Positions 41,346 to 48,399 of a stretch of 64,000 nucleotides of DNA are shown here, one piece after another (the stretch's first letter is position 1; each line of letters starts with the position of its first letter). The position numbers and the translations under genes are program-made. The notes beneath the pieces were generated by a model that saw only the letters and a list, made by a program, of their open reading frames with translations, searched no databases and had not been told where the DNA came from. Source of the stretch: Candidatus Latescibacterota bacterium (GTDB lineage Bacteria > Latescibacterota > UBA2968 > UBA8231); contig OZ241867.1 in assembly GCA_965203175.1 (NCBI GenBank), positions 6,432,001 through 6,496,000 on the forward strand, given 5' to 3'.

Positions 41346-43082
41346 ATGAGAAAATTCCTCCAAAAGACAAAACTCGCCGCCTGGGGCTTACTCGGCGGCC
41401 TAGCACTCGCCGCCTGTGGCTCCGACGAGGGAGGCATAAAGCACGTCCCCCGCAACCGCACCCTCATCCTCGGCCTGCCGCAGATGCGGGACTACGACTC
41501 GTTCAATCCCTTTATCGTCGGCACCCAATCCCCGGGCTTCGACTACCTGTTTGAGCCGCTCTACTTCTACAACGCGTACGTAGAAAAAGACCACGTCATA
41601 CCCTGGATCGCCACAAGCCACGAGTACAACGCAGACTACACGGAAGTGACGATCCACATTCGCAAGGGGGTGAAGTGGAGCGACGGACGGCCCTGGACCG
41701 CCCACGATCTCAAGTTCACCGTTGACATGCTCAAGGACCACGCCCCAGAGCTGGCCTTTTCCACCGACATGGACACTTGGGTCGCCGAGGTCGAAGTCCC
41801 GGATTCGCTGACGGCGCGGTTCGTGCTCAAAGCGCCCAACCCCCGCTTTGTATTCTCCTATTTTACCTACAACTTCGGCAACGGCATCCACATCGTGCCC
41901 AAGCACATCTGGGAGGGCGAGGATCCGACCTCGTTCAAAAACCTCGACTTGGCGCGCGGCCTGCCGGTCGTCAGCGGCCCCTATCGCTTGGCGCGCTCCG
42001 GTCCCCAGCAGCGGCTCTGGGATCTGCGCGAGGACTGGTGGGCCGCCCAAATCGGCTTTCAGCGTCTGCCGAGGGTCGAGCGCATCATCTACCTGCCCCA
42101 AGGCGACGAGAACAAGTGGGTCCAACTCATCCTCGCCAACCAGATGGATCAGTGCATCGACTTGCGGCCCTCCAACATCAAGACCCTCCTCGACCAAAAC
42201 CCCAACGTCACCACGTGGTCGGGCCGCCAACTGCCCTACGGCTATCGGGACTGGTGGCCGCCGGCCCTCGGCTTCAACAACCTAGAGCCGCCCTTCGACG
42301 ACCCGGACATTCGCTGGGCCGTAAACCACGCCATCGACCGCGAACAACTCGTGGCTATCGGCTGGCAGGGCGCCGGCGAGTACACCCTTTTGCCGTTCCC
42401 CCACTTCCCGCCGCTTATGCACTACATCAACCAAGTGCAGGATCTACTAGCAAAGTATCCCGTGGGAAAACACGACCTAGCCCAGACCGCAGCCATCATG
42501 GAGCGCAAGGGGTGGAGCAGAGATGCGGAAGGTATGTGGCAGCGGGACGGCGAGCGCCTAAGAATCCCGGTCGTCGTCTTTCCCTCCCTCTTCCAAGACT
42601 TCACGCCCGTGCTGGTCGAGCAACTGCGCCGCGCGGGTTTCGACGCCTCCTTCCGCATGTTCTCCGACGCCTATACCCGCATGACCCAAGGTACGGCCCA
42701 CGCCTTTGTCATGGGCAACGGCGGCTCAGTGCGCGACCCGTACTTCACTCTGCGGCTCTACCACAGCCGCTACGTCCAGCCCACTGGCACAGCCACTCCG
42801 TATTTCTGGCGCTGGCGCAACGCGGATTTCGATCACTTGGTCGATCAGATGGGCCAGACCGCGCCCGACGACCCAGCGCTCGTGCCGCTGTTCCGCCAAG
42901 CCCTCGAGATCTGGCTGACCGAATTACCGGCCATTCCTCTGCTCCAGTGGTTCCACCGCATTCCCCACAACCAAACCTATTGGAAAAACTGGCCCTCGGC
43001 CGAAAACCCCTACATGAACAGCGCCTATTGGGTGCGTTCGTTCTTGATCGTGCTGTTGGGATTGGAGCCGACGCAGCCTTGA
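41346..43082 (+). CDS. ABC transporter substrate-binding lipoprotein, family 5 (peptide/oligosaccharide)
   Basis: LAAC lipobox; IRKGVKWSDGRPWTAHDLKFT, PFDDPDIRWAVNHAIDR. Confidence 0.93.
   Translation: MRKFLQKTKLAAWGLLGGLALAACGSDEGGIKHVPRNRTLILGLPQMRDYDSFNPFIVGTQSPGFDYLFEPLYFYNAYVEKDHVIPWIATSHEYNADYTEVTIHIRKGVKWSDGRPWTAHDLKFTVDMLKDHAPELAFSTDMDTWVAEVEVPDSLTARFVLKAPNPRFVFSYFTYNFGNGIHIVPKHIWEGEDPTSFKNLDLARGLPVVSGPYRLARSGPQQRLWDLREDWWAAQIGFQRLPRVERIIYLPQGDENKWVQLILANQMDQCIDLRPSNIKTLLDQNPNVTTWSGRQLPYGYRDWWPPALGFNNLEPPFDDPDIRWAVNHAIDREQLVAIGWQGAGEYTLLPFPHFPPLMHYINQVQDLLAKYPVGKHDLAQTAAIMERKGWSRDAEGMWQRDGERLRIPVVVFPSLFQDFTPVLVEQLRRAGFDASFRMFSDAYTRMTQGTAHAFVMGNGGSVRDPYFTLRLYHSRYVQPTGTATPYFWRWRNADFDHLVDQMGQTAPDDPALVPLFRQALEIWLTELPAIPLLQWFHRIPHNQTYWKNWPSAENPYMNSAYWVRSFLIVLLGLEPTQP
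43042..43082 (+). repeat. 41-bp direct repeat A1 (3' end of the SBP gene)
   Basis: 39/41 identical to 44443-44483. Confidence 0.9.
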
Positions 43083-43195
43083 GATTGAGTTATGAACTGA
43101 CATTACGCAGTCTTTGTTCCCAACTTCCCATTCCTGTATCCTTTCCGCTACACCCCAGCGCCTCATATCCCCTTCTCTCCGCTGAGCCGCCGCTG

Positions 43196-43210
43196 TGGCA
43201 CGATTCTTGC
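43196..43210 (+). promoter_or_regulatory. Putative sigma-54 promoter (-24/-12)
   Basis: TGGCAC-GATTC-TTGC matches TGGCAC-N5-TTGC, 45 bp upstream of the rpn ATG. Confidence 0.5.
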
Positions 43211-43255
43211 CTTGGGTTGCGGGTACCACTTCACCCGCAACTCAAGGCAGGGCTC

Positions 43256-44167
43256 ATGGCCGAATTCGATACCATCGCCAAACATCTCATCCACACCTAT
43301 CCCCACGACTTCGCCCGCTTCGCCCTCCACCAAGACGACCTTGAAGTGCTCGATGTCATTGACACCGAGCAACCCACCGTCGAAGCCCACCGCACCGATA
43401 GCCTCATCCGCGTACAAGTCGGAGACGAGGAGGCGTTGGTCCATCACGAGTTTCAAACTACGGATAGTAGTCCGCCCATGCCGCAGCGCATGGCCGGTTA
43501 TATCGGGCGTGCCATCGAGCAGCACGGCGTACCCACCTACTCCACCGTCATCTATCTTCGTCCGGACGCCGGCCGGAATGATCCGGGGCACTATCTCCAA
43601 GAGCGGCACGGCTTCCGCGTGTTGGTGCAATACAAGGTGATTCGGCTGAGTGAACTAGACGGCCAACGCATGCTCGACGCGGGGCATTCGGGTTTGATTC
43701 CGTTTGCGCCGTTGATGCAGCAGCCGGCGGGTGTGGATGCCGAGGCATGGTTGCGCCAGTGTGTCCACCGGGCACAGCAGGTGCCGATGGACGAGACTCG
43801 CAAGGTCAATTACTTGGCCGATCTTGCCATTTTGGGTGGATTAGTGTATGAATATGAAACAATAATGACCATCATCTCGGAGGCGACCATGTACGAATCG
43901 TCGGTAGTGCAGTATTTCACGGAAAAGGCCATCAAGCAGGGTCGAGAAGAAGGCATTGAGCAAGGCATTGAGCAAGGAAGCCGAGAACGCGCTATTGAAG
44001 ATTTGCTCGACGTGCTGGAGATTCGCTTTGGGCTGGCCGCGTCGGATCCGTTGGCCGTGCGCCTTGGGGCCATTGACGATGTGCAGCGCCTCAAGCAGTT
44101 GTTTCGCGCGGCCATACAGGTGCCCAGCCTCGAAGCCTTTAGGCACCTGTTAGACAAAGCCGAGTAG
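43256..44167 (+). CDS. Rpn family recombination-promoting nuclease / PD-(D/E)XK putative transposase
   Basis: FDTIAKHL, RTDSLIRV..LVHHEFQT..MPQRMAGY, STVIYL, C-terminal QGREEGIEQGIEQG repeats. Confidence 0.85.
   Translation: MAEFDTIAKHLIHTYPHDFARFALHQDDLEVLDVIDTEQPTVEAHRTDSLIRVQVGDEEALVHHEFQTTDSSPPMPQRMAGYIGRAIEQHGVPTYSTVIYLRPDAGRNDPGHYLQERHGFRVLVQYKVIRLSELDGQRMLDAGHSGLIPFAPLMQQPAGVDAEAWLRQCVHRAQQVPMDETRKVNYLADLAILGGLVYEYETIMTIISEATMYESSVVQYFTEKAIKQGREEGIEQGIEQGSRERAIEDLLDVLEIRFGLAASDPLAVRLGAIDDVQRLKQLFRAAIQVPSLEAFRHLLDKAE
43889..44167 (+). CDS. Putative nested in-frame small protein (RpnS-like intragenic antitoxin), 92 aa
   Basis: GGAGG at 43879-43883, 5 nt before in-frame ATG 43889 (MYESSVVQ...), just ahead of the xEG/xQG repeats. 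Confidence 0.6.
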   Translation: MYESSVVQYFTEKAIKQGREEGIEQGIEQGSRERAIEDLLDVLEIRFGLAASDPLAVRLGAIDDVQRLKQLFRAAIQVPSLEAFRHLLDKAE

Positions 44168-44218
44168 GGCACTGCGTAACGTCAGTTATGAAGTTGCGGA
44201 TGCCGTTGGCGCAGAGGT

Positions 44219-44260
44219 CATCAGGCACCTCGATTAGGTTCGACTTAGCGGCGAATCCGT
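44219..44260. repeat. Direct repeat B1 (copy of the hsdR leader region)
   Basis: CATCAGGCACCTCGATTAGGTTCG---ACTTAGCGGCGAATCCGT matches 48397-48441 apart from a 3-bp indel. Confidence 0.9.
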
Positions 44261-44392
44261 TTGCGTTGTGTCCTCCCAAACGGCCTCATCTTCCGCCACG
44301 GCCTCTTCCTCCGTTTGTGATTCGTAATGCTGGAGGAGACGTTGGACACGTTCCTCGTTCCAACCGTCTGGAAACCTAGTCTCATTTTTCAT
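44234..44392 (-). pseudogene. Small putative antitoxin-like protein (FPxGWxEERV...EAVAEDEA type), C-terminus disrupted
   Basis: MKNETRFPDGWNEERVQRLLQHYESQTEEEAVAEDEA; a plausible continuation (LIEVPDDL..IRNFI) lies in another frame around and past the stop. Confidence 0.5.
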
Positions 44393-44442: not shown

Positions 44443-44483
44443 TCTTGATCGTGCTGCTGGGATTGGAACCGACGCAGCCTTGA
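44443..44483 (+). repeat. 41-bp direct repeat A2 (copy of SBP 3' end)
   Basis: TCTTGATCGTGCTGCTGGGATTGGAACCGACGCAGCCTTGA. Confidence 0.9.
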
Positions 44484-44489
44484 CCCCGA

Positions 44490-45215
44490 TTATTGCAACA
44501 CCACCGAATCAAGCTGTGATTTTCTGGCCTCCCAATCGGGCATACAGCGGTCGAGCAGGCGGAAGAACGCCGGGCTGTGGTCGTAGATGTGCAGGTGACA
44601 AAGTTCGTGCATGATGACGTATTCGATGCAGTGCAAGGGCGTTTTAATGAGTTCGGTACTGAGGGTGATGGTTCCTCTCCTAGTGCAGCTACCCCAACGT
44701 CTAGTCATTCGTCGGATTCTCAAGGTGGGTGTCACCTTCTGTAAGGACGGTGCCGACTCCAAGCAGTGAGCCATTCGCTCCCGGAAGATGGGCTCAGCGT
44801 GCGCGCGATACCAATCGTCAAGCGCTGTGCGAACACACCGAGGCTCTTCCGGCTCTGGGACAGAAACATTCAAGAAACGACCGGCTAGCTTGACCTCAAC
44901 GTCGCAGGCGCGGCGAACTTTCAGCCGATACTGACGCCCGAGATAGAGGTGGGTCTCCCCAGAGACGAACCGTTTGACTTCTGGCAGTGGATGAAAAGTC
45001 TCGAAATGGCGACGCTGCTTGGCAATCCACGCCCGTCGGCTCTCAAGATATGCTAGCACTTCCTCTAGGGGACAACCCACAGGTGCCGACGCTGTCACCG
45101 AGCAGTCGGGATGAACTGAGATTGACAGGTATCGGCTCTTTTTGAATTTGAGCGCGACCGGAATTTGTTCACTCGAATACTCTACGACGACATGCTGGAT
45201 ATGCTCGTCAGGCAT
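44490..45215 (-). CDS. M48/YgjP (SprT-like, DUF45) metallopeptidase associated with type I R-M
   Basis: GETHLYLGRQYRL, MTRRWGSC, YVIMHELCH..HSPAF. Confidence 0.92.
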   Translation of the reverse strand: MPDEHIQHVVVEYSSEQIPVALKFKKSRYLSISVHPDCSVTASAPVGCPLEEVLAYLESRRAWIAKQRRHFETFHPLPEVKRFVSGETHLYLGRQYRLKVRRACDVEVKLAGRFLNVSVPEPEEPRCVRTALDDWYRAHAEPIFRERMAHCLESAPSLQKVTPTLRIRRMTRRWGSCTRRGTITLSTELIKTPLHCIEYVIMHELCHLHIYDHSPAFFRLLDRCMPDWEARKSQLDSVVLQ

Positions 45216-48200
45216 ATCGCACTCTCGCAATATCCAGCACCGAGTCCAAAATGCGGTCAATCTCCTTGAAGCTTAGTTCGAGATTTTCTCGCTCCATGAG
45301 TTCGAACAAGTAGTCTTCAATCGCCAATTTCATCCGGTTTTGGACATCGGTGTTGCGGGTCCAGTGGACGATGCGATGCTCTTGGACGATGTCGTCGATG
45401 GCCAGACTAATCGTGGCACCAATATCCCGGACATTGGCCGTTTGGTTGGCGTGGTCCGAGAACACTTCTTGAAGCACGCCAAAGAATGCCTTGGCCACGT
45501 CTCGGTGAGCGAGGGCCGCAGGAATGTCGTCCCCCGTGCGGTTGCGCACGCGCTCGGCAATTTGCTTCACTTCTTGCAGGTATTCCGCGTCGGAAAGCCG
45601 CTGTTCCCGAAAGGCCCGGATCGCGTCTTCAAGCAACTCTGAGAATTGGCGATAGAAGGCCGGATCCTTCCGCATGAGATCCTGAATCGTGCGCCTCGTG
45701 CGAAAGGCGATGGTGTCGGCCTTGGACGACGCGCTAGAGAGCCTGTCAACTTCCTTAGCGAAAGCGTCGGCGTTGAAGATGTCCACCAAGTCCGTGATCC
45801 GCTCCACCTCGCCCGTCCCCACGTACTGATTGACCAGCTTTTGAATGCGCGGCTCGTACTCTTTGAAATCGACTACTTCGGCGTAGCGTCGGCTTACCGA
45901 ACTGCGCAGGCGCATGAAGAAGCGAAGATCGGCCTTGTACGCAGCGATTTTCTTTTCCGGTGTCGCATCGAGAAAACCCGCACTGGAGAGCGCGACCCCC
46001 AGCGTTCGTGAGAAGGCGCTCAAGCGTTCGTAGAAGCGGTCACGCAGCCCCTCGTCCGCCAAGAGTTGCTCGTATTCTTCCTCGTCTTGTCTGTTTTGGA
46101 TAGTCTTGAACAGATCCCACAGGTCCGAATAGCGCTGCCGCAGCTTGTGGGATTCAGCACTCACATCCGTTATCGCTCTGGCCAAATCTTCGATCCCCTC
46201 TTCTTCGAATTCGGCGAGTTGGCCGTAGAGGTCGAACGCTTCGTCGAGGTTCTGCAAGACACCCCGGTAGTCGATGATGTAGCCGAAATCTTTGCCGTCA
46301 AAGAGGCGATTGACCCGGGCGATCGCTTGCAGTAGGGAATGGCTCTTTAGCTGCCGCGTGAGGTAGAGCACGGTGTTACGCGGCGCGTCGAAGCCAGTGA
46401 GCAACTTGTCAACGACAATGATGATCTCGGGCTCCTCAGCCTGTTTGAACGCGCTGATGATCTGGCGATTGTATTCTTTCTCACTACCGTATTTCGCCAT
46501 CATCTTCTTCCAGAAAACTTTGACCACGTCCTTGGATTCCTCGTGGACGTCTTCCTCACCCTCGCGGTCGTCGGGTCCCGAGATCAGCACCTCGCTGCTG
46601 ACCATGTCGAATTCGTCGAAGAAGCGCTTGTAGAGCAGGGCCGAGGCTTTGTCTTGGGCCACGAGTTGCGCTTTGTAGGGAGTGTGGTGCCAGTTATCGC
46701 GGAAGTGTTCGCTCACATCCCAAGCGATTCGCATCACTTTTTGCTCGGCTTTGTTCAACTGGTCGCTCGATGAGAATTTCTTCTTCAAGTCGCTTTTCTG
46801 CTCGTCGGACAAGCGGGCCGTAATCCGCTCGAACCAGTCGTCCAGTGCCTCGGAATCAACTTTCTGATCGACATGCCTCCCTTCGTAGAGCAGCGGTACC
46901 ACGGCCTTGTCCTGTACGGCCTGCTCTAGGGTATAGGCGTCGATTAGGCCTCCGAAGCGGTCAATGGTACTCTTGTCCTTCTTCATTACGGGCGTGCCGG
47001 TGAATCCTATGAAGCAGGCGTTGGGGAGCGCCTGTCTCATTTTGGCGTGCAACTCGCCGAACTGGCCTCGGTGGCTCTCGTCAACGAGGACGAAAATATC
47101 TGGATGCTCATTGCGCACGCCGACTCTACTGACCGCGAGTTCAAACTTGTCGATGACCGTAGTGATAATCCGCGCCTTGTCGTCCTTGAGCAGTTGCTCC
47201 AAGTGCCTGCCGGTTTTCGCCTGAATAGGCTGTGTGCCGCAGTGGTGGAAGGTCTTGTAGATCTGATCGTCGAGATCAACGCGATCCGTCACTAGGATGA
47301 TTTTGAAGTCAGTGAGGCTTCGTTCAAGGGCGAGGGCCTCGGCGAGCATCACCATGGTCAGGCTCTTGCCACTGCCTTGGGTATGCCAGACTACGCCGCC
47401 TTGGCGCGTTCCGTCGCTCTGGGTTTCCCGCACTCGGTCGAGGATCTTGTTGACGCAGAAGTACTGCTGATGGCGGGCAATTTTTTTCTCGCCTCCGTCG
47501 AAGAGCATGAAACGGAAGATCAATTCGAGGAGTCGCTCCTTGCGACACAGGGAATAGAGCGCTTCGTCCTGTGGCGTTACCTGCCGTTCTATGCTTCCAT
47601 AGCTCTCCCGCTCTCGGCCCCAAAACTCCTTCGTAGCAAGAATTCTGTCGATTTGGCCCTCGCTCAGCGGAAGGCTCACCCTCTTCTTTAGGTCAGCCTC
47701 ATCGCTCTCGCTGAAATTCTCCTTCCACACCGACCAGAACTTGGCGGGCGTACCCACCGTGGCGTACTTGGCTTCGTTCTTCGAGATGGCGAGGAGGAGT
47801 TGCGCGTAAAAGAAAAGACGGGGGATTTGGTCTTGTTGCTGGTTGCGGATATGCTGGCTAATCGCTTGGCCGATCGGGTCCTTCATGTCGGGCCGCTTGC
47901 ACTCGATGACCACTAGCGGAATCCCGTTGACGAAGAGCACGATGTCGGGTCGGCGGGTCTCCTCGCTACCACTGCGCTCGACTACGAACTCCTCGGTCAC
48001 GTGGTAGGCGTTGTTTTCAGGATGCTCCCAGTCGATGTAATTGAGCTGAAAGCTCTTGGTGTCTCCCTCGACCGATTGTTGCAGGCTCTTCCCCATGCAC
48101 AGCAAGTCATACGCTTTCTCATTGGTTGGCAGCAGGCCGTCATCTACTATGTCCTTCAGTGCCTGAACTGCCGCGAGGATATTGCCCTCGCTGAAGGGAT

Positions 48201-48399
48201 ACGTGCGGCCTCTGAAGAGGATGGCGTTCTGATTGCGCAGTTGATCCGTCAGTATCTTGTCGAGGAGTACGCTGCCCAGTCGATCACCGCGAGCTTCGTT
48301 CGCTTTTTCCGGGCTGAGGTACTCGTAGCCGAGATTCTGCAGAAGCGCCACCGCAGGAAGCTGGGAGATGAGCTTTTCTTGGAAGGAGGGTAGGACCAT
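45208..48399 (-). CDS. hsdR: Type I restriction endonuclease subunit R
   Basis: RPDIVLFVNGIPLVVIECK nuclease motif, HTQGSGKS Walker A, VDESHR, GFTGTP, LLTGFDAP, QAIARVNR. Confidence 0.97.
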   Translation of the reverse strand: MVLPSFQEKLISQLPAVALLQNLGYEYLSPEKANEARGDRLGSVLLDKILTDQLRNQNAILFRGRTYPFSEGNILAAVQALKDIVDDGLLPTNEKAYDLLCMGKSLQQSVEGDTKSFQLNYIDWEHPENNAYHVTEEFVVERSGSEETRRPDIVLFVNGIPLVVIECKRPDMKDPIGQAISQHIRNQQQDQIPRLFFYAQLLLAISKNEAKYATVGTPAKFWSVWKENFSESDEADLKKRVSLPLSEGQIDRILATKEFWGRERESYGSIERQVTPQDEALYSLCRKERLLELIFRFMLFDGGEKKIARHQQYFCVNKILDRVRETQSDGTRQGGVVWHTQGSGKSLTMVMLAEALALERSLTDFKIILVTDRVDLDDQIYKTFHHCGTQPIQAKTGRHLEQLLKDDKARIITTVIDKFELAVSRVGVRNEHPDIFVLVDESHRGQFGELHAKMRQALPNACFIGFTGTPVMKKDKSTIDRFGGLIDAYTLEQAVQDKAVVPLLYEGRHVDQKVDSEALDDWFERITARLSDEQKSDLKKKFSSSDQLNKAEQKVMRIAWDVSEHFRDNWHHTPYKAQLVAQDKASALLYKRFFDEFDMVSSEVLISGPDDREGEEDVHEESKDVVKVFWKKMMAKYGSEKEYNRQIISAFKQAEEPEIIIVVDKLLTGFDAPRNTVLYLTRQLKSHSLLQAIARVNRLFDGKDFGYIIDYRGVLQNLDEAFDLYGQLAEFEEEGIEDLARAITDVSAESHKLRQRYSDLWDLFKTIQNRQDEEEYEQLLADEGLRDRFYERLSAFSRTLGVALSSAGFLDATPEKKIAAYKADLRFFMRLRSSVSRRYAEVVDFKEYEPRIQKLVNQYVGTGEVERITDLVDIFNADAFAKEVDRLSSASSKADTIAFRTRRTIQDLMRKDPAFYRQFSELLEDAIRAFREQRLSDAEYLQEVKQIAERVRNRTGDDIPAALAHRDVAKAFFGVLQEVFSDHANQTANVRDIGATISLAIDDIVQEHRIVHWTRNTDVQNRMKLAIEDYLFELMERENLELSFKEIDRILDSVLDIARVRYA

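Follow-up and report, generated by a model that had tools for sequence, protein, structure and literature searches.

A probable mobile insertion cassette carrying a distant Rpn-type nuclease gene between IS701-family ends in Candidatus Latescibacterota

RESULTS

A 1089-bp unit with insertion sequence ends carries a single nuclease gene

We analyzed a 64,000-nucleotide stretch of DNA from a Candidatus Latescibacterota bacterium (assembly GCA_965203175.1, contig OZ241867.1, positions 6,432,001 to 6,496,000), hereafter called the window. The genome, labelled G000, comprises 6,579,469 bases in one contig, with 59% G+C. The window contains a 1089-bp unit whose only gene encodes a 303-amino-acid protein (P0001), a distant member of the Rpn (YhgA-like) family of PD-(D/E)XK nucleases. 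We conclude, at a probability of roughly 85%, that this unit is a mobile insertion cassette, in which an IS701-family DDE insertion sequence (IS) has supplied the ends that enclose an Rpn-type passenger mobilized in trans. The cassette, a set of miniature transposable elements with inverted repeats (MITEs), and a full-length IS in a sister genome share their ends, the length of their target duplication, and their target type, and a transposase is encoded only in the IS. This combination is what defines a mobile insertion cassette.

The ends of the unit, CTGACATTACGCAGT on the left and ACTGCGTAACGTCAG on the right, match at 14 of 15 positions, and a repeat search extends the arms to 17 nt at 94%. 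TTATGAA is repeated exactly on both sides, and the right end begins 3 bp after the stop codon of P0001 (44165-44167). A preliminary description of the window, made from the letters alone, had reported these ends, repeats, and spacing for a 1089-bp unit with an rpn gene as its sole cargo, and the sequence confirms all of them. The cargo is one gene, shorter overlapping open reading frames (ORFs) within the cassette being listed but not counted as genes. There is no transposase gene inside the unit, and the Pfam transposase models gave no match.

Copies in this genome, in the genus, and in a second family carry their own duplications

Four further full-length cassettes are present in G000, with 87, 84, 84, and 74% identity to the window copy, bringing the total to five. 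Homology spans unit bases 1-1089 or 7-1089 of these four copies and then ends, and the flanks all differ. Their direct repeats are TTATCTAA, TTACTAA, TTATATA, and TTAAAAA/TCAAAAG, the last of which match at 5 of 7 positions; perfect repeats thus border four of the five cassettes of this genome. The repeats are 7 bp long (8 bp in one case), and the targets are AT-rich. Because the full-length copies align over exactly this unit, each with repeats of its own, the inverted ends and the duplication are not a product of chance.

When the cassette locus was used as a query, it matched 26 of the 31 genomes of the genus (including this one), mostly with several copies in each. The five genomes without a cassette (G015, G016, G017, G018, and G024) are the same five that lack a match to P0001, an absence that is unproven since these assemblies are fragmented. 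From the relatives, we fetched 20 copies. Both ends could be read in 11, and in the other nine, one end was lost or diverged. Four of the 11 readable copies have perfect 7-bp repeats (GAAATAA, TGAATAA, TTACGAC, and TAACTAA), and two more have repeats that match at 6 of 7 positions.

Relatives of P0001 also occur in a second family of the same class, where they are 49-64% identical by local tblastn (51-66% in a separate comparison) and reach up to 64 matches per genome (G032). Three of these copies have cassette-type ends and are flanked by perfect repeats (TTATTCA, TTGGTAA, and TTACTGA). Overall, the cassette targets resemble TTAnTAA. In G032, eight loci share at least one flanking sequence and four of those share both, indicating that these four copies sit inside a larger repeat.

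A separate arrangement was observed in G032. Many Rpn-like genes of this genome are bracketed by a 118-bp repeat (L088:1045-1162 and 2451-2568, L097, L110, and L111) that has its own 20-nt inverted ends, TAAGAGTCCCTAACAAAAAG, in a layout resembling a two-MITE composite around a gene. We considered TAAGAGTCCCTAACAAAAAG as a diverged form of the cassette end and rejected it, as it belongs to this separate repeat. It had no matches at the distant IS701-like element of G032 in the two loci tested, and no partner IS was found there.

MITEs with the cassette ends have clean empty sites

MITEs of 98-234 bp with the cassette ends are found in this genome and in the sister genome G001. One of them (2217043-2217145, 103 bp) has TTACTAC on both sides, and the corresponding sites in G010 and G044 contain a single TTACTAC with no insert. 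Another (4697665-4697762, 98 bp) is flanked by TTAGTAA on both sides, with a single TTAGTAA at the site in G006 and TTAGTCA in G010. These clean empty sites indicate that the ends mark a unit that truly transposes and generates a 7-bp duplication.

A DDE insertion sequence in a sister genome shares the cassette ends

The preliminary description had proposed a search for other elements with these ends, and the genome and its relatives contain cassettes, MITEs, and a DDE IS that share them. The IS emerged from a scan of five genomes with the end motif, which gave 21 matches in G001 (4 with the control) and 0-1 matches each in G015, G016, G017, and G024. Two pairs of motif matches in G001 lie 1.1 kb apart and away from the cassette matches. 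The first pair bounds a 1108-bp IS (G001:C1:3370343-3371450) with CTGACGTTACGCA...TGCGTAACGTCAG as its ends and TAACTAG as its repeat, and the second pair is a broken copy of the IS. The 361-amino-acid protein of this IS matches NF049921, "IS701 family transposase," with 351.4 bits (cut-off, 250), as well as the Pfam families DDE_5 (6.4e-17) and DDE_Tnp_1 (9.9e-11).

We inspected nine loci of this IS. Five have perfect repeats (TAACTAG, TACATTAA, TATTTAA, TTAATTA, and TTACTCA), three have none, and one lacks an end pair. The duplication is 7 bp at four loci and 8 bp at one, in AT-rich targets. Across 16 aligned ends, drawn from cassettes, IS copies, and MITEs, positions T2, G3, A4, T7, T8, A9, G11, and C12 were invariant and three more positions within the first 13 nt were at least 90% conserved. 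The similarity is gone after about position 19.

Matches to the IS transposase (E<=1e-20, 40 relatives searched) occur in 13 of 24 genus genomes and in 4 of 12 genomes of the second family. Intact close copies are present in G001, G002, G007, G010, G011, G013, and G023 of the genus and in G035 and G038 of the second family, and only fragments were found in G003, G008, G014, G019, G020, G022, and G036. The 29 transposase matches of G032 are only 28-30% identical. Because G010, G013, G023, and G035 each contain several IS copies with identical scores, the IS looks recently active in these four genomes.

The preliminary description had seen no DDE transposase in the window, and for the cognate enzyme this extends to the whole of G000. 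A tblastn search with the partner transposase returned nothing at E<=1e-3, and two further searches gave no matches. Fuzzy end scans and a comparison of the genome with itself likewise returned only cassettes, MITEs, and lone ends, and no partner IS. Without a cognate transposase in the genome, its five cassettes are probably immobile, or stranded, at present. Such stranding fits their age and their divergence from one another.

G000 does contain unrelated transposable elements. Its sole match to DDE_5 (PF13546; G000:C1:364376-365059, minus strand) is interrupted by a TGA codon; this copy showed no tblastn similarity to the partner transposase, and the end scan found no cassette-type ends nearby. 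Other IS families of this genome (examples at G000:C1 29238-30423, 1294947-1296179, and 2686406-2687640) include one of about 1.17 kb in 15 copies with ends GGCGTTGTTGCATGAA, an IS3-like family of 1.23 kb in six copies, and a family of 1.23 kb in four copies with a zinc-finger transposase and, in one copy, an 8-bp duplication. The ends of these repeat families differ from the cassette ends.

The text available from De Palmenaer et al. (2008; PMC2266710) gives IS701 elements a length of 1400-1550 bp, 4-bp duplications, and mostly no YREK motif, and the ISPepr1 subgroup of the IS4 family a length of 1500-1600 bp. The partner IS resembles the ISPepr1 and IS10/IS50 subgroups described there in its 5'-CT ends, AT-rich targets, and 7-8-bp duplications. 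Unlike IS701, it is 1108 bp long, generates 7-8-bp duplications, and encodes a protein with the string Y-QK-R-WNV-E-TFHKTL-K (Y-2-R-3-E-6-K, by eye). With this size, duplication, and YREK string, the partner IS fits neither the IS701 nor the ISPepr1 description cleanly.

The passenger is a distant Rpn-family protein with a predicted restriction-endonuclease fold

No match to P0001 was found in a Pfam scan. Its match to TIGR01784, the NCBIfam model for the Rpn family, scored 29.5 bits, below the cut-off of 52.1, and the same profile run on the whole genome gave no match. A word-index search returned 1962 relatives at E<=0.001, and an exhaustive search returned 2421 cluster representatives at the same threshold. 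The best 120 of the 1962 are 80-95% identical, and the few named ones among them are hypothetical proteins from Gemmatimonadota metagenome-assembled genomes (MAGs). Aligning 35 full-length relatives showed no variation at D48, E65, and Y82 and at least 90% conservation at D5, Q67, and R78. TIGR01784 matched 17 of these 35 (E<=0.01; best, 3.5e-11), DUF4351 matched three, and Transposase_31 matched one. Matches of relatives to Yae1_N and FliH in Pfam and NCBIfam were attributed to the low-complexity repeat region and set aside.

P0001 was modeled using AlphaFold with a mean predicted local distance difference test score (pLDDT) of 93.9. The C-terminal half of the model is helical, with a long helix at residues 216-258. 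In a wide structural search, residues 1-134 matched nucleases of the restriction-endonuclease fold, namely, NucS (Z 8.5; root-mean-square deviation, 3.1; 100 residues aligned), VC1899 (Z 7.8), R.BspD6I (Z 7.6), and Can2 (Z 7.5), scores that are in the middling range for such a search. Foldseek returned nothing from the Protein Data Bank at E<=0.001; XisH and NucS nevertheless received high probabilities. A profile search of solved structures gave a single chance-level match. As modeled, the N-terminal domain of P0001 is a restriction-endonuclease fold and not a DDE fold.

Rpn proteins are described as toxin-antitoxin or anti-phage nucleases of E. coli and other bacteria in the available portions of two studies (PMC5350276 and PMC10400941). 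The residues mutated in RpnA include D11, D63, E82, Q84, and R94 (Kingston 2017, PMC5350276, text available), and D5, D48, E65, Q67, and R78 of P0001 are spaced in the same way, with the E-x-Q motif. The C-terminal four-residue repeats of Rpn proteins vary in number, according to the available text of Zhong et al. (2023; PMC10400941). Similarly, the proteins encoded by the cassette copies are 287-327 amino acids long, and the variation falls in a block of four-residue, GIEQ-type repeats. P0001 departs from Rpn proteins as described there in that its gene sits within borrowed IS ends and in that it scores below the TIGR01784 cut-off and has no Pfam match. The preliminary description had called the protein an Rpn nuclease outright. 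That name suits the protein by its fold, catalytic positions, and repeat region but not by the family models, and we read the passenger as a distant but genuine member of the family, for which the label "Rpn" is acceptable only in this sense.

The Rpn-like protein is unlikely to move the cassette

Relatives of P0001 that are about 43% identical occur in many copies per genome in Poribacteria MAG records (L185-L261), with 24 of the 77 returned loci located in OZ242325.1. The homology shared by these copies begins at a TTGACA-N17-TATAAT promoter, about 45 bp upstream, and finishes at the stop codon; the ATG follows the -10 box by a few bases. No inverted ends were seen around the Poribacteria relatives in the 26 loci inspected. 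The protein family thus multiplies without inverted ends in Poribacteria, which indicates that the ends seen here are an acquisition.

This bears on whether the unit is an autonomous IS whose transposase is the Rpn-like PD-(D/E)XK protein itself, as the preliminary description had allowed in proposing Rpn-linked transposition. Such an element would be the first stand-alone transposase of this fold. The layout is typical of an IS, with one ORF taking up the unit and stopping 3 bp short of the right end, and 26 of 27 copies have kept this ORF intact. The cassette is also the only coding element with these ends in G000, and the motif and the gene are jointly absent from G015, G016, G017, and G024 (0-1 motif matches versus 21 in G001; G018 was not scanned). 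However, the sister-genome DDE IS accounts for the ends, the duplications, and the MITEs without new chemistry, and a DDE IS with the same ends had been named in advance as the observation that would count against Rpn-linked transposition. The multiplication of the Poribacteria relatives without inverted ends points in the same direction, and the purifying selection on a site-fixed copy described below would not be predicted from element-level selection on a transposase. In the available text of Zhong et al. (2023; PMC10400941), rpn genes are patchily distributed and often multicopy, have no inverted repeats or target duplications, and must hitch-hike. That text reports no evidence of autonomous rpn transposition and no known autonomous transposase with a PD-(D/E)XK fold. 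Given both the lack of ends and the lack of such a transposase there, an Rpn-driven IS would be remarkable. We consider it extremely improbable. The other possibility raised earlier, a non-autonomous cassette that uses a DDE transposase in trans, is the one supported by the IS701-family IS and the MITEs, which share its ends and its 7-bp duplication.

Alternatively, the nuclease could be an accessory of the DDE transposase that cuts the second strand at the ends, as in the TnsA/TnsB arrangement. TnsA of Tn7 is a PD-(D/E)XK-fold nuclease within a heteromeric transposase (PMC10400941, text available), and here as there, a nuclease of this fold is linked with transposition. The gene has also stayed with the ends in two bacterial families, even where protein identity falls to about 55-60%. 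In Tn7, however, TnsA is part of a multi-protein transposase encoded by the same element, whereas the nuclease and the DDE enzyme considered here never occur in one unit, and no observation ties the nuclease to the reaction. The full-length IS lacks such a gene and yet has perfect 7-bp duplications and multiple identical copies, the cassette and the IS share only 13-15 nt, and the protein appears to retain the hallmarks of an Rpn toxin/antitoxin. An accessory role therefore appears very unlikely.

The window copy is old, and its reading frame is under purifying selection

Full-length frames are present in 26 of the 27 copies examined, including copies that have lost one end. The median pairwise ratio of nonsynonymous to synonymous substitution rates (dN/dS) is 0.23 over 325 pairs. 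Two relatives, G012 and G022, carry the unit at the window site, and both its ends and its repeat are identical there. Between this genome and these two, dS is 0.25-0.28 for the cassette ORF and 0.24-0.27 for the neighboring solute-binding protein gene. The similarity of the two ranges indicates that the window insertion was inherited. Along the lines leading to the window copies of the three genomes, dN/dS of the ORF is 0.19-0.20, and selection therefore acts on a copy that sits still. The window copy has been at its site since before the three species diverged, and its reading frame has been kept by purifying selection.

One comparison stands apart. Between G012 (L008) and G022 (L009), dS is 0.08 for the cassette ORF and 0.26 for the adjacent solute-binding protein gene, which hints at gene conversion or a recent block exchange between these two lineages.

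The preliminary description had suggested looking for an allele of the window site without the unit in related genomes. No clean one was found when whole loci were compared with the genus genomes, the cassette sites lying in variable AT-rich spacers or islands, and the flanks of the 20 relatives' copies gave no clean empty allele when compared with this genome. In G023, the unit is replaced at the window site by about 75 diverged bases. G003 (L010) retains the left repeat and the first 9 cassette bases at this site and then jumps to about base 598, which is an internal deletion.

The window copy also lies within a larger structure. A 41-nt direct repeat (95%), formed by the last codons of the solute-binding protein gene, is present at 43042-43082 and 44443-44483 and brackets a 1401-bp block. 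The block comprises the cassette and about another 300 bp; it is missing from G002 and G013, which keep one 41-nt copy. The difference could reflect insertion with duplication or deletion between the repeats.

The absence of this block from G002 and G013, the shared flanks at eight G032 loci (both flanks at four), and the lack of a clean empty site for a full-length copy would speak for cassettes having spread within larger blocks, through recombination or horizontal transfer, with the repeats as leftovers of one old insertion. That account does not extend to the five copies of G000, each of which has different flanks and a different 7-8-bp repeat, as do copies in other genomes, or to the MITEs with the same ends, which show precise insertion with duplication. 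We therefore regard block transfer as a poor explanation, with little chance of being correct.

A promoter-like motif, a putative leader hairpin, and a candidate internal start

About 45 bp before the start codon lies the motif TGGCACGATTCTTGC, which is exact in 22 of 26 cassette copies. Its perfect match to the sigma-54 consensus makes it a putative sigma-54-type promoter. Across the genome, the pattern TGGCAC-N5-TTGC has 41 matches versus 7 for a reversed control, and rpoN is present. A sigma-70 promoter scan found none, and an Rfam search returned only a sub-threshold microRNA match. If the motif acts as presumed, a sigma-54 promoter on a mobile cassette would make expression activator-dependent.

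The leader may also form a hairpin whose 3' arm reaches into the start codon (Table 1). Most copies retain its inner stem, GTTGCGGGT/ACCCGCAAC, and both sides are changed in one copy (by eye). Transcription initiated at the cassette's own promoter would leave out the 5' arm, while transcripts reading through from outside would include both arms and could mask the ribosome site.

Within the gene, the GGAGG word and ATG at Met212 could serve as an internal start yielding a small C-terminal protein, as judged from sequence conservation. Of the 26 genus copies, 25 have Met in this column and all 26 have the Shine-Dalgarno-like word; Met is also found there in 21 of 35 distant relatives. The four-residue repeats begin 17 residues after Met212. 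For the small antitoxin RpnS, the repeats begin 8-20 residues after the start (PMC10400941, text available), and the candidate start, with its Shine-Dalgarno word, would fall within that range. Presence in multiple copies per genome is a further likeness to the rpn genes described there.

Table 1. Features of the cassette in the window, with the basis for each
Feature	Position	Strand	Basis or remark
Left target-site duplication copy, TTATGAA	43090..43096	.	Identical to 44186-44192
Whole passenger cassette (probable mobile insertion cassette), 1089 bp	43097..44185	+	Homology limits of other copies
Left terminal inverted repeat, CTGACATTACGCAGT	43097..43111	+	Sequence read directly and repeat search
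Sigma-54-type promoter-like motif, TGGCACGATTCTTGC	43196..43210	+	About 45 bp before start codon
Putative leader hairpin, 3' arm reaching into start codon	43199..43258	+	26-nt arms, 81% complementary
Sole gene, 303-amino-acid distant Rpn/YhgA-like PD-(D/E)XK nuclease (P0001)	43256..44167	+	ORF, fold, conserved positions
Candidate internal start: GGAGG, five bases, ATG of Met212	43879..43891	+	Would yield 92-amino-acid C-terminal protein (RpnS-like)
Tandem 12-nt repeat encoding variable four-residue repeats (GIEQ GIEQ)	43950..43973	+	Repeat search
Right terminal inverted repeat, ACTGCGTAACGTCAG on plus strand	44171..44185	-	Sequence, repeat search, end alignment
Right target-site duplication copy, TTATGAA	44186..44192	.	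Sequence read directly

Genes next to the window copy

The solute-binding protein gene upstream of the cassette belongs to family 5. Directly downstream (window 44490-48399, minus strand), genes for a YgjP-like metallopeptidase and a type I restriction R subunit adjoin the cassette, so the window copy borders a restriction-modification locus. A short frame at 44234-44392 (minus strand) had no Pfam match.

DISCUSSION

Mobile insertion cassettes are represented by MIC231 of Bacillus cereus, which has the ends of IS231 and a passenger in place of the transposase, moves in trans, and generates the duplication of its parent. The cassette described here likewise has the ends of an autonomous IS, a passenger that replaces the transposase, and a duplication of the parent's type. 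It differs in its parent, a 1108-bp IS701-family element, in its cargo, an Rpn nuclease, and in a ratio of cassettes to IS copies of 5:0 in this genome. It resembles MITEs in being non-autonomous and in having the ends and the duplication of the parent IS; unlike MITEs, it carries a gene that is complete and under selection and has a promoter-like leader of its own. The element type is already known, and the cargo is new for it.

We propose that the cassette consists of two 13-15-nt IS701-family ends with the passenger gene in the place of the transposase gene. A DDE transposase from full-length IS copies elsewhere in the cell would recognize these ends, cut out or copy the cassette, and insert it at AT-rich, TTAnTAA-like sites, where a 7-bp staggered cut would give rise to the 7-bp duplication. 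The same enzyme would move the MITEs of about 100-230 bp that have the same ends. The Rpn-type passenger would take no part in the movement. Its full-length nuclease may be restrained by a short C-terminal protein translated from the internal start, and by analogy with known Rpn systems, the passenger is probably a self-contained defense gene of the toxin/antitoxin type.

Several observations weigh against this interpretation. No clean empty site was found in the genus genomes for seven full-length cassettes (the window copy, L002, L003, L004, L005, L050, and L054), and among the 11 genus copies whose two ends could be read, 5 show no duplication. Cassettes persist in genomes in which the IS was not found (G000, G004, G005, G006, G009, G012, and G021); either their spread there is old or the assemblies miss IS copies. 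The duplication is 7 bp, versus the 4 bp given for IS701 in the available text of PMC2266710, a mismatch that leaves the NCBIfam model as the only source of the IS701 label. Finally, mobilization in trans is inferred from the shared ends.

It is possible, though doubtful, that the Rpn-type cargo makes loss of a copy costly or is of use against phages, allowing the cassette to outlast and outnumber the parent IS. A cargo that is costly to lose or useful would explain the five copies in this genome without an IS and the approximately 60 protein matches in G032, whose transposase relatives are only distant (28-30% identical). In that case, borrowed transposon ends would be a regular means of spread for defense genes of the Rpn family.

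A literature search, with supplementary tables beyond its reach, found no published Rpn-family gene bounded by IS ends. The nearest case is a speculation about Thiomargarita, in which a MITE family may derive from a PD-(D/E)XK-type IS, with one MITE copy inside a YhgA-like gene (Flood et al. 2016, text available). The label "putative transposase" combined with IS-like anatomy can mislead. In the present case, the anatomy is real, and the responsible enzyme would be encoded elsewhere. In the text available, Zhong et al. (2023; PMC10400941) proposed hitch-hiking of rpn genes without documenting it, and this locus would give it a concrete vehicle in the ends of an IS701-family IS.

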